A stretch of 64,000 bases of DNA from Escherichia coli (GTDB taxonomy: Bacteria > Pseudomonadota > Gammaproteobacteria > Enterobacterales > Enterobacteriaceae): assembly GCF_048403405.1 (NCBI RefSeq), contig NZ_CP183129.1; one strand, given 5' to 3'. Below are positions 52,510-55,784 of the stretch, piece after piece. Each line of letters starts with the position of its first letter. Position 1 is the first letter of the stretch. Position numbers and translations under genes: made by a program. Under the pieces are notes generated by a model. That model was not told the origin of the DNA. It saw only the letters and a program-made list of their open reading frames with translations, and searched no databases.

Positions 52510-52530
52510 GCTGTCAGTTCGTAAGTCAGA

Positions 52531-52559
52531 AAGCCGCCGACATGTTCGGCGGTTTTTTT
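52531..52559 (+). terminator. rho-independent terminator of the nuo operon
   Basis: GCCGCCGACATGTTCGGCGG followed by TTTTTTT immediately after nuoN. Confidence 0.85.
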
Positions 52560-52574
52560 GGTGCCCTGACCCCA

Positions 52575-53078
52575 TCACCCAACAATAACCGTCAGCGCAT
52601 GATTCCCTTGTCGCAGCATACGTCGATACGCACTAATCAGCTTTTCCATATCAAGCATGATCGAAGCAAAGAGTTGCCCCTCTAACTCTTCTGAAAAAGT
52701 CACACCAGGGTAAATCTCTATTTCATTGAGTCGTTTAATGGAAAACTGTTTACGCAGCTCACTTCGATCCAGAGCTTCCAGTCGGTCGATTGTCGCGGCT
52801 AACTCCTGATTCCAGGTCAATCCCAGGAAGCCATCTATGCCATCTTCGAGGTTGTGTTCACCAAGCACGGCACGACTCAGCGGATCATTCTTCGCGGGAT
52901 CAAAAGCAGAGGTGCCTGTCAGGCCAAAATGTAAAAAATCCCAGCGTTTATCAATATCCAGTCGGTGTAATCCTGAAAGCGTGTCATGAATATTGTCCAT
53001 TAAGGGTTTTTCAGTAGACTCAAGCAGTTGGTTAATTTTTTCTGAGTCAATTTCTGCAAAATAGCCAATCATTCCCAT
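52575..53078 (-). CDS. yfbM: DUF1877-family protein YfbM
   Basis: 167-aa ORF matching YfbM. Confidence 0.85.
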   Translation of the reverse strand: MGMIGYFAEIDSEKINQLLESTEKPLMDNIHDTLSGLHRLDIDKRWDFLHFGLTGTSAFDPAKNDPLSRAVLGEHNLEDGIDGFLGLTWNQELAATIDRLEALDRSELRKQFSIKRLNEIEIYPGVTFSEELEGQLFASIMLDMEKLISAYRRMLRQGNHALTVIVG

Positions 53079-53180
53079 TTTATTTTCCTCCGTTGAATTT
53101 CATGTTTCGCATCTTAAAACAGACGAGGGAAAATAAAATGTACATGTCGCTTTTTCTGGACTCGCCTCGAGAAATTTTTA

Positions 53181-54152
53181 TTATTTACTGTTGTATAACA
53201 AAGTTATAACCCCATCCACTACCTGAGCCATTTTCTGATAATTTAATCTGTCTGCGGTATCACCGGGCAAGTGGTATTGTTTATTACGATAAAAAGCGGT
53301 GTCGGTAATCATTACGGCGGGAATATCGTGTTGCCAATAATTAAGGTGATCAGAGAAATCAATACCGGGAATAAACCCTGGGGCATTCATAGAATAAACA
53401 GATAAATCCCGGGATGACAACAATGCCGCTTTTACCTGACGAACGGCGTTGATATCCTGCATTCTGCCGACCACGGCAATAAAGTCTCCCCGATCGGGAT
53501 AAAGCCAGGACATTGCCGGGTAAGGGTAATCCTGACTACCAGGCGCAGAGTCGTAATAGCCAATCATCTCCAGCGCTATCATTAATCTCACTGGACGCTC
53601 AAGCGAAGCTGCATGTACCGCGCTCCCCATTTCATCGCTACGAAAGAAGGGCGGTTCTTCCGACGCATAGGCGACCAGCTGCACGCCAGTTTTCGGTGCT
53701 TGCTGCTGTAACAAACGTGCCAGTTCGAGTAATCCTGCCACGCCACTGGCGTTATCATCCGCGCCCGGCGTATAGGTCAATTGATCGTTTTCATAACTGC
53801 TGGCAGAGTCATAGTGCGCACCAATAATAATCAGCGGTCCATCGGCAGGACCATAATCAGCAACAATGTTTTTGTAGGGGCCACCCGCAATGGGGACGTC
53901 CTGCGAGGTAACTCTGGCACCGCTACTGACAAAGACCTCTTTTATATACTCTGCGGACCTATTCAGATTATCAATATTGTCGGCACTACGTGGATGCACA
54001 GTTTGTGTAAGATAACGAACTGTTTTTTCTAATTGCTCAGGACTTGCGTGTCGGGGCGTTGACGGTAATGCATTGACCCAAGGTTGGCAAAAAATAATCA
54101 GAGGGAGTGATAGTAGTAATGATATAAAACAAAGAGGTGTTATTTTTTTCAT
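53181..54152 (-). CDS. yfbL: M28-family aminopeptidase (secreted)
   Basis: 323 aa with signal peptide and M28 peptidase motifs. Confidence 0.85.
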   Translation of the reverse strand: MKKITPLCFISLLLSLPLIIFCQPWVNALPSTPRHASPEQLEKTVRYLTQTVHPRSADNIDNLNRSAEYIKEVFVSSGARVTSQDVPIAGGPYKNIVADYGPADGPLIIIGAHYDSASSYENDQLTYTPGADDNASGVAGLLELARLLQQQAPKTGVQLVAYASEEPPFFRSDEMGSAVHAASLERPVRLMIALEMIGYYDSAPGSQDYPYPAMSWLYPDRGDFIAVVGRMQDINAVRQVKAALLSSRDLSVYSMNAPGFIPGIDFSDHLNYWQHDIPAVMITDTAFYRNKQYHLPGDTADRLNYQKMAQVVDGVITLLYNSK

Positions 54153-54491
54153 ATGTAAATTATCAATAAAAGGCGTTATTTCATTATTATTTATAATGAG
54201 TTATGAGTATTTATTTTATTACGGTTGGTAGGAATATACAAAAAGTATTTTTTCAGTTGGTTCGCTATTTTAAAAAGGAATTCATATAAGAAATAAAAAA
54301 TAAGTATGTTATTTATTGGTAGATTGAATTGACAGGGTGCAGAAATCTGAGGGTAAGAAAAATCAGCAACAACAATTCACTACATCAACAGACCAGCAAT
54401 CGAGTGCCGCGATACGCTGGAAATACCCGCAGATTGAACTGGCGGGTGGTGTGACTGGCATCAGTCAGTGATGACTTTTTAGCAAACTATG

Positions 54492-54525
54492 TTCGACCAG
54501 TCAGCATATTTACTGACTGGTCGAA
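54492..54525. repeat. perfect 13-bp inverted repeat (TTCGACCAGTCAG - 8 nt - CTGACTGGTCGAA)
   Basis: Read from the sequence, about 40 nt downstream of the elaD stop; no adjacent T-tract. Confidence 0.7.
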
Positions 54526-54566
54526 TTAATTGACAATGATGTTAACTTACTCTTTTTCCTGATGCT

Positions 54567-55784
54567 CTATTTTTTGGGTTGTGAATATTTTATTTCTAAG
54601 TTTCTATAATAATGATTGATATTTGCATCGCCATATTTATCTAAATAACAATTTCTGTTTATCAGTCGATGTTGAAAATCAATTTCGTACTGCTCTTCTG
54701 CTGAATATTTTTTAAATCTGTCAGCATAGTTTTTTAATAACGTATAGGGAGCGCTGTCAGAATTGCTTTCCCTTTGTTCAATTACTTCTTTGGCTGCCAT
54801 GCACACAAATGCACCGCAACTTTGGCTTAAATATTGCTGAAGATCGGCATGTAAAAATATTATCTCGGGTTCAGTTAAATGATCTGTTATATTATCATTA
54901 TTCGGCATTTCCCCCATGAATTTAGAATTGAAACTATTAATGACACGCTTAAGTGAATTTTCTTTATCATGGCCTAGTGCACGTAATGAGTTGAATATGA
55001 CGCATTTTATTTGTTGTGTGTTATTTTTTTCATTTACTATTTTCTGTAGCGAAACTAATATCCAGTGTCCGCCAGTATTTATGGGGAATAACTGGACTTC
55101 ATTCGGCCATGATGGATCGCTCTTAATATTTTCATTGAGCGCGATTTCCAGGTAAGTGCTGTTGGAATCGGGGAGATAGAGACCAGTAGGATAATTGACT
55201 TGAGTATTATTTGCATTAGCGGCGATCTTCTGAAGATAGCAATCTATTTCATCCGTGGTTAATTGACGATTTTTATCCCAGAAGTTTGTACCATCGCTCA
55301 GTTCATTATTCTTATCATTTAAAAGTACCTTTGAAAGCGACTGTTTTTCAGATATAAGAGGAATATCATCACCGATAATTGTCATTAATTTTGACGGGGA
55401 GAATAGCTTTTTGAACAGGAGATCATCTGAATTGTCCGGACCAGCTGGTTTAAGGGGGGAGTTGGTTGCGGCATGCGCCAAATTATATAATTTTAAACAG
55501 GCATTTTTAATAAGTCGGATAATCGATAGGGTCTCATTTGTTGGGTTTCTAACAATATGGTAAAGAATATCTTCAGCTTTTTTCCCAAATTCATCATAAC
55601 CTAACGCAATGTTATGCAGTAACTCAATACTTTCTTCATCTCCGGATAACGCTGTTTTTTTTAAAGACTGCAGTAATTCCTCGGTCACAGTAAATTTTCT
55701 GCAAATGTCTGACAGAGTTGGGTTTGAGATAATTGACAATAATTGCTGACAACTGTAACCATCATAGGCTCCTTTTAGTTGCAA
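54567..55784 (-). CDS. elaD: ElaD deubiquitinase-like cysteine protease (Ulp1/CE clan)
   Basis: 405-aa ORF matching ElaD. Confidence 0.85.

Follow-up and report, generated by a model that had tools for sequence, protein, structure and literature searches.

Between nuoN, the terminal gene of the nuo operon, and rbn, the Escherichia coli chromosome carries genes that differ from strain to strain. The interval considered here (positions 52,510–55,784) lies in a 64-kb window, that is, the whole stretch of contig NZ_CP183129.1 that was analyzed. In this window, nuoN is followed after a gap of 65 bp by yfbM, and yfbL is separated from elaD by a 414-bp AT-rich gap (GC content 0.338, against 0.518 for the whole window) that contains a perfect 13-bp inverted repeat at 54492–54525 (Table 1). 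A first-pass annotation, made from the sequence alone, had recorded these features, regarded the interval as a reduced form of the K-12 locus, and proposed that the repeat could be a deletion or insertion scar or a regulatory site. The list of open reading frames (ORFs), the sequence, its base composition, and a scan for repeats confirm both gaps and the repeat as they had been recorded. Comparison with other genomes identifies the interval as a common haplotype of a variable region that is already known; this is ordinary pan-genome variation, and no new kind of element or mechanism is implied.

Gene content and comparison with K-12

The gene order of K-12 MG1655 (b2268–b2276) is rbn, elaD, yfbK, yfbL, yfbM, yfbN, yfbO, yfbP, and nuoN, as the first-pass annotation had given it, and yfbK, yfbN, yfbO, and yfbP are all missing from the window. 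The two loci are alike in their position, in their flanks (nuoN on one side and rbn–elaA–elaB–menF on the other), and in the possession of yfbM, yfbL, and an elaD-bearing insert with the inverted repeat. Alignment of the window with the K-12 region by blastn gives three collinear blocks separated by two gaps (fetched loci are cited below by number, with L001 for K-12). The segment L001 11440–13997 (2558 bp, GC content 0.40), which contains yfbN, yfbO, and yfbP, is represented in the window by a 15-bp linker, and the segment L001 8036–9591 (1556 bp), which lies wholly within yfbK, is represented by 21 bp. Relative to K-12, the window lacks those 2558 bp and 1536 bp of yfbK, and its elaD is frameshifted. 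The yfbM and yfbL genes of the window share about 95.6% nucleotide identity with those of K-12, compared with 98.7% for nuoN, whose product is 100% identical. The annotation of TUM14771, which is 99.9% identical to the window over 4.5 kb, carries nuoN and agrees with the gene identities given here.

The frequency of each state was determined in 5426 complete E. coli genomes, with 201-bp junction-spanning queries and a requirement for full coverage in the junction counts. The compact nuoN–yfbM junction is present in 4212 of these genomes (78%), including the sequence type 131 (ST131) strain EC958 and O157:H7 strains. A separate figure of 4163 genomes is not a count of compact alleles, because pieces lying up to 2750 bp apart were joined. 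The K-12 yfbNOP block is found in 1015 genomes, in 985 of them at an identity of at least 99%, and many of these are K-12 derivatives. The locus is strain-variable, as the first-pass annotation had stated. The description of the interval as reduced is correct for yfbK, which has been deleted and has left a remnant in the gap, and does not hold for nuoN–yfbM, where the compact junction is the majority state. The first-pass annotation had named the presence of the window's gene content in K-12 and most E. coli as the outcome that would overturn it; the K-12 order that it gave stood, yet most E. coli resemble the window rather than K-12 at the yfbNOP site. K-12 is thus an atypical reference at this locus, and the yfbNOP islet is a minority feature.

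Table 1. Coordinates of genes and sequence features in and around the nuoN–rbn interval (positions in the 64-kb window).
Feature	Position	Strand	Description and basis
nuoN	51052–52509	+	Left-hand anchor; terminal gene of the nuo operon; ORF
nuo operon intrinsic terminator	52531–52559	+	Stem GCCGCCGA/TCGGCGG, 5-nt loop, then T7
Linker GGTGCCCTGACCCCA at the probable empty site	52560–52574		Flanked by the nuo terminator T-run and the yfbM stop codon; blastn breakpoints
yfbM	52575–53078	−	Intact; Pfam DUF1877; 97.0% amino-acid identity to K-12
yfbL	53181–54152	−	Intact; Pfam Peptidase_M28 (M28 metallopeptidase); 93.5% amino-acid identity to K-12
yfbL/yfbK divergent spacer	54153–54284		AT-rich, retained; aligns with the K-12 yfbK–yfbL spacer
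yfbK remnant	54285–54471	+	Decayed, three pieces (187 bp); alignment to intact yfbK
Remnant piece 1	54285–54411		yfbK nt 1–132; ATG changed to ATA, early stop TAA
Remnant piece 2	54412–54432		yfbK nt 1456–1476; ATACGCTGGAAATACCCGCAG, encodes IRWKYPQ; 20/21 positions match intact alleles
Remnant piece 3	54433–54471		yfbK nt 1690–1728; includes the stop codon
elaD insert	~54445–55952		~1.5 kb, GC content 0.36; from inside the last yfbK codons to the rbn stop codon
Perfect inverted repeat TTCGACCAGTCAG-N8-CTGACTGGTCGAA	arms 54492–54504, 54513–54525		13-bp arms, 8-nt loop
elaD pseudogene	54543–55766	−	ElaD/SseL deubiquitinase; alignment with K-12 and ES5 elaD
elaD-like ORF	54567–55784	−	TTG start, 405 amino acids
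rbn	55953–56870	−	ORF
elaA	56935–57396		

The elaD insert and its inverted repeat

The boundaries of the elaD insert are defined by alignment of elaD-free with elaD-bearing genomes. The gene is absent from the B2 strain EC958, from Escherichia sp. MOD1-EC7003 (L003), from a divergent Escherichia genome deposited as E. coli SCPM-O-B-8794 (L004), and from E. albertii (L005), and the rbn–yfbK spacer of EC958 aligns with the spacers of the outgroups. At the yfbK end, the insert changes the C-terminus of YfbK from ...IGLAKDLDNSQN to ...IELADGVTDISQ. Neither the ORF list nor the K-12 annotation contains an integrase or a transposase within the insert. elaD is present in 4186 of the 5426 genomes. Published work places elaD in phylogroups A, B1, D, and E and reports that B2 and extraintestinal pathogenic E. 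coli (ExPEC) strains lack it (Catic et al., 2007, PMC1847702; Wang et al., 2025, PMC12575377).

The inverted repeat is part of this insert and is unrelated to the yfbK breakpoints. Only one other perfect inverted repeat of at least 13 bp with closely spaced arms exists in the window, and none of 100 shuffles of the window matched the repeat at 54492–54525. That repeat lies within the insert, 47 bp from its right boundary, and starts 60 bp to the right of the last of the yfbK junctions (54411/54412 and 54432/54433). A single copy occurs between the elaD and yfbK stop codons of K-12, ES5, and Z1323PEC0008, in all of which yfbK is intact, and TUM14771 likewise has one; none of the four elaD-free loci examined (EC958, L003, L004, and L005) contains it. 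As the repeat is present in yfbK-intact alleles and absent from elaD-free loci, it belongs to the elaD insert and is not a scar of the yfbK deletion. No further half-site, with up to two mismatches allowed, exists elsewhere in the three yfbK-intact loci, and the repeat is single in the window. The first-pass annotation had suggested a search for the repeat at the breakpoints of yfbK-bearing alleles, and no half-site lies at the other end of yfbK. In the genome collection, the repeat-bearing segment is about as frequent as elaD itself (4164 and 4186 of 5426 genomes, respectively), and the 201-bp junction query that contains the repeat maps to a median of one site per genome. This segment has no match in phage genomes, and its plasmid matches are chromosome-sized records or chromosomal fragments that carry elaD and yfbK.

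The arms of the repeat are invariant in the seven alleles examined, though the elaD genes differ by 5–6%. The only variable neighboring base changes the 13-bp stem of the window and TUM14771 to a 14-bp stem in K-12, ES5, Z1323PEC0008, E. coli B, and an O103:H2 strain. The 97-nucleotide context folds at −27 to −28 kcal/mol, with z-scores of −5.1 and −5.7, which indicates a strong hairpin on both strands. In K-12, the repeat is located 16 bp past the stop codon of the full-length elaD and 20 bp past that of yfbK. An Rfam scan of 52300–56100 at an E-value of 1 or below yielded only two chance-level matches and no RNA family at the repeat. FadR half-sites were weighed as a match for the arms and dismissed, since they would be in the wrong order and at the wrong spacing.

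The elaD copy of the window is a pseudogene. Its Pfam matches are PF22103 and PF22102 (ElaD/SseL N and C) and PF02902 (Peptidase_C48), with E-values from 3.5e-47 to 6.7e-26. Compared with K-12 and ES5, one base pair is lost from an A-run at about codon 23 (TTTT on the + strand, 55695–55698), and one is gained in an A-run near the 3′ end (TTTTTT on the + strand, 54570–54575), resulting in an early stop codon at 54567–54569. The conserved start is the ATG at 55766, which is preceded by AAAAGGAG. The 405-residue ORF that starts with TTG at 55784 belongs to the shifted frame and is not the native elaD frame; the long TTG-start ORF masks a frameshifted pseudogene. The elaD of TUM14771 is 100% identical over the gene and is labeled as frameshifted by the Prokaryotic Genome Annotation Pipeline (PGAP). 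The gene is also frameshifted in Z1323PEC0008 and FDAARGOS_1250.

Pseudogenes of elaD that start with a single-nucleotide deletion have been described, together with a warning that sequencing may slip where the gene is rich in adenosines (Catic et al., 2007, PMC1847702). The published polymorphism is like that found here, both in the patchy presence of the gene and in frameshifts within A-runs, of which the window copy has two. A term search of PMC12575377 gave no mention of yfbK, rbn, frameshifts, or pseudogenes, and the word "flank" is absent from PMC1847702. Within these searches, which for PMC1847702 did not include yfbK and rbn, neither paper yielded an account of where the insert ends, of the deletion in yfbK, or of the repeat.

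Other inverted sequences lie at or near the ends of the insert. A 10-bp exact inverted match, TGAACTGGCG (54435–54444) and CGCCAGTTCA (55980–55989), brackets the insert, with one arm in the 3′ coding end of yfbK and the other in that of rbn. The match belongs to a 30-nucleotide inverted repeat of 73% identity, and EC958 has similar sequences at the equivalent sites; the match could be due to chance, or it could have had a part in elaD insertion. Within the insert and just past the rbn stop codon, a hairpin at 55913–55935 (ACAGGGC-AAGTTTC-GCCCTGT) is followed on the + strand by TTTTTAATAAT, and is oriented as a terminator for + strand transcription, antisense to elaD.

Sequence divergence is also marked beside the insert. 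The elaA gene of EC958 (L033) has only 82.5% nucleotide identity (86.9% amino-acid identity) to those of the window and K-12, and its rbn is 95.2% identical, compared with 98% for nuoN. So deep a split between haplotypes at this place is suggestive of recombination across lineages or species.

The yfbK deletion and the nuoN–yfbM junction

The yfbK remnant is collinear with both ends of intact yfbK and occupies the orthologous position between yfbL and elaD. Intact yfbK is a lipoprotein gene whose product contains the Pfam domains vWF_A, VWA, and YfbK_C. The three remaining pieces imply deletions of nucleotides 133–1455 (1323 bp) and 1477–1689 (213 bp), both multiples of 3, and 1536 of the 1728 nucleotides of the gene are missing in the window. 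Neither deletion junction has meaningful microhomology; the second has a single shared G. In the 40 bp adjoining the junction, piece 1 has only about 72% identity to intact yfbK. A 44-residue ORF with a GTG start (54337–54471, + strand) is an in-frame read-through of the three pieces and has no Pfam match. It is annotated as a hypothetical protein in TUM14771 (WP_001328566.1), and is very unlikely to be a real gene; the 44-residue "hypothetical protein" of related genomes is a yfbK remnant.

The deletion junction is present in 2551 of the 5426 genomes, and internal yfbK DNA in 2540. Except for two base substitutions, the compound junction is identical in E. coli B (phylogroup A), the O103:H2 strain (phylogroup B1), and the lineage of the window, and TUM14771 has the same compound junction as the window. 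Because this junction is shared across phylogroups and is found in 2551 genomes, the loss of yfbK is one ancient deletion event that has now reached a frequency of about 50%. Full-length yfbK is carried by EC958 and Escherichia sp. MOD1-EC7003, and the match in E. albertii spans residues 99–572 of 575; the intact gene is the ancestral state. In the divergent Escherichia locus L004, yfbK has been lost independently, and only the last ~48 codons are left.

The fate of yfbL, which is transcribed divergently from yfbK, varies among genomes that carry the deletion. E. coli B (L038) and the O103:H2 strain (L039) combine the same yfbK deletion with a frameshifted yfbL, and yfbL is annotated as a pseudogene in both as well as in FDAARGOS_1250 (L037). 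FDAARGOS_1250 has the same layout with no yfbK annotated, and the window keeps an intact yfbL. The two genes may be a functional pair that is decaying together. To judge from its position, the retained spacer between them probably contains the divergent yfbL/yfbK promoter region.

At the other end of the interval, the compact nuoN–yfbM junction contains the nuo operon terminator and the 15-bp linker. The terminator, recognized from its sequence and fold, is conserved in K-12, EC958, ES5, and the divergent locus L004; a simple terminator scan did not list the element at 52531–52559. It is located 15 bp past the yfbM stop codon and may also end yfbM transcripts arriving from the opposite side. 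The linker is common to the window, EC958, and L004 with one to three differences, and has no similarity to the ends of the islet. Where the site is occupied, an islet takes the place of the linker with precisely the same two end points and with differing content. The K-12 islet comprises a decayed SMI1/KNR4-family remnant followed by yfbN, yfbO, and yfbP; the remnant lies at L001 11466–11713, and the K-12 yfbM–yfbN spacer measures 272 bp. The 2.1-kb islet of ES5 has an intact SMI1/KNR4 gene (L036 1339–1911), a yfbN-like gene, and a yfbO-like gene, with no yfbP, and is only 81% identical to the K-12 islet. Escherichia sp. MOD1-EC7003 contains a version that resembles that of ES5. No integrase, tRNA target, or flanking direct repeat is visible at the islet boundaries of K-12 or ES5.

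The GC content of the islet is 0.40 in K-12 and 0.38 in ES5, compared with 0.52 for the window, an atypical composition combined with a patchy distribution. Its low GC content, patchy distribution, and variable content indicate that yfbNOP is an accessory islet, and the window most likely represents an empty site that was never occupied, although the direction of the change is deduced from comparison. E. coli strains carry strain-specific chromosomal islets, such as the K-islands and O-islands defined by comparison of K-12 with O157. The yfbNOP block resembles these as a patchy, low-GC accessory block with sharp boundaries between core genes; it differs from them in that its boundaries lack a tRNA gene, an integrase, and direct repeats, and in that the window holds the empty site.

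The nuoN–yfbM junction is a recurrent insertion target. Insertion sequence (IS) elements are also found there: ISEcB1 of the IS3 family lies between nuoN and yfbM in FDAARGOS_1250 (L037 3593–4950) and E. coli B (L038 1–1103), and an IS66-family element lies next to a shortened yfbM in Z1323PEC0008 (L035 1–1069). The idea that YfbM, a DUF1877 protein, and the islet genes are orphan immunity genes was rejected, as it found no support in a literature search that brought up one unrelated paper; the SMI1/KNR4 annotation in ES5 is the sole hint in that direction. PADLOC gave no defense-system match for YfbM, YfbL, YfbK, YfbN, YfbO, or YfbP.

History of the locus and function of the repeat

The locus as a whole is best explained as a mosaic variable region formed by the gain of elaD, the old deletion of yfbK, an empty yfbNOP site, and an elaD-linked hairpin. 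The probability of this explanation is estimated at about 0.85, and it builds on the observed structure, breakpoints, population counts, and association of the repeat with elaD. The ancestral order, in the orientation of the window, was nuoN, yfbM, yfbL, yfbK, and rbn. B2 E. coli keeps this order in full, and E. albertii keeps it from rbn to yfbM, where its contig ends. A low-GC elaD insert of ~1.5 kb replaced the rbn–yfbK spacer together with the last few yfbK codons. On a chromosome that already carried elaD, nearly all of yfbK was then removed by two in-frame deletions (1323 bp and 213 bp); the 187-bp remnant later lost its start codon, and the allele spread to about half of E. coli. In the lineage of the window itself, elaD gained its two homopolymer frameshifts. 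In the window, the nuoN–yfbM site is unoccupied and most likely always was, with K-12 and some other strains holding a diverged, low-GC islet that includes or lacks yfbP. The repeat arrived with elaD and most likely folds in RNA as a 3′-end hairpin, acting as a terminator or an exonuclease block and taking the place of the different bidirectional rbn–yfbK terminator of elaD-free genomes. The locus thus offers a clean case of stepwise decay, in which elaD gain and yfbK loss are followed by loss of yfbL or elaD according to lineage; its importance beyond correct annotation is small.

In terms of function, the repeat is most likely a 3′-end hairpin shared by the convergent elaD and yfbK transcripts. 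In elaD-free genomes, the equivalent rbn–yfbK spacer contains a classical bidirectional terminator, TCTGTTTGCC...GGCAAACAGA, which is flanked by T-runs. The repeat resembles bidirectional intrinsic terminators in being a strong stem-loop 16–20 bp past two convergent stop codons, and differs from them in lacking a U-tract and in having no mapped 3′ end in the K-12 tables searched. A role in blocking exonucleases once Rho has ended transcription is as probable as a role in termination itself. In the searched supplementary tables of a K-12 3′-end study (PMC7815308), Rho-termination regions at 2383800 (+), 2382764 (−), 2386323 (+), and 2389543 (−) fall within elaD and on its antisense strand, within yfbL, and antisense to yfbP; the equivalent positions in the window are in elaD and yfbL. 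These regions fit the usual silencing of AT-rich acquired genes, and the expression of elaD, yfbK, and yfbL under laboratory conditions is probably low.

Several points weigh against this account of the locus. Neither strand of the repeat has a U-tract, the tails being UUAAUUGACA (+) and CAUAGUUUGC (−); the terminator scan did not list the repeat, and its arms never vary, so that they supply no covariation evidence. In the searched tables of the K-12 study, elaD and yfbL appear only as Rho-termination regions and yfbK does not appear; one such region is located inside elaD, at 2383800, and none at the repeat (PMC7815308, supplement). Since the repeat has no U-tract and was not listed by the scan, it is not a canonical intrinsic terminator, and these two findings together with the Rho-only tables leave its function as a hairpin at moderate confidence. 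With regard to the islet, its presence in the lineage of Escherichia sp. MOD1-EC7003 means that the direction of the yfbNOP difference is not proven, and the islet alleles are only 81–83% identical, which points to an old islet or to repeated import; the contig of E. albertii stops 14 bp past yfbM and is uninformative on this question. In addition, the collection of 5426 genomes is biased toward clinical and laboratory strains, and the states at the three sites were counted separately rather than jointly per genome.

Deep divergence and presence in another lineage keep alive a scenario in which the islet is ancestral: the lineage of the window would once have held a yfbN-type islet between nuoN and yfbM and then lost it, a true reduction. 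Such a loss agrees with the occurrence of islets with the same two boundaries in K-12, ES5, and L003, whose 81–83% identity suggests an old presence, and with the decay of the K-12 islet itself, as seen in its SMI1/KNR4 remnant. It is nevertheless unlikely, given that the same 15-bp linker, which is unlike the islet ends, fills the site in phylogroup D (the window), in B2 (EC958), and in L004, that 78% of genomes have the empty site, and that the GC content of the islet is only 0.38–0.40. A broader proposal is that the segment between the nuo terminator and the yfbM stop codon is a docking site at which low-GC cassettes are swapped by an unrecognized mechanism, and that the elaD-linked palindrome is at the same time a functional recombination or regulatory element. 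The cassettes, which would be SMI1/KNR4-like, yfbN, yfbO, and yfbP, could enter and leave at the same boundaries, with the window as an empty site. This combination of claims is distinctly improbable, and an empty site beside an elaD-linked hairpin is the preferred reading.

For the repeat, the idea of a scar or recombination site of yfbK loss or insertion, as put forward in the first-pass annotation, draws on the fact that the repeat shares the 414-bp gap with the yfbK deletion and, from the shuffles and the inverted-repeat scan of the 64-kb window, is clearly no chance match. It is scarcely tenable any longer, as the deletion junctions are 60 bp away, the other end of yfbK has no half-site, and the single repeat in the same place in the yfbK-intact alleles of K-12, ES5, and Z1323PEC0008 already refutes it. 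Instead of an RNA hairpin, the repeat might be left over from the process that moved the elaD insert, for example as a recombinase site or a mobile-element end. It co-occurs with elaD, lies within the insert at only 47 bp from its right boundary, and lacks the U-tract of a classical terminator; this origin is still improbable, for neither the other end of the insert nor the rest of the window or the fetched loci holds a matching copy, the insert carries no integrase or transposase, phage genomes gave no match, and the plasmid matches are chromosomal in nature. A DNA operator for a dimeric regulator of elaD or yfbK would be in keeping with a perfect palindrome with invariant arms. The repeat, however, sits between two 3′ ends and away from a promoter, its 8-nucleotide spacer and 13-bp arms suit a hairpin, and variation at the single variable position beside the arms makes the stem longer or shorter; the repeat is not known to match an established motif. 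An operator is therefore very improbable, and a 3′-end hairpin remains the preferred function.

Close relatives of YfbL (82–93% identity) were found only in Escherichia, and the next matches are at 47–50% identity in metagenome-assembled genomes (MAGs) of Opitutales, Nitrospirae, Thiothrix, and Desulfobacterales, and at 37–39% in Acinetobacter. This drop in identity outside Escherichia suggests that yfbL is itself an old horizontal acquisition.

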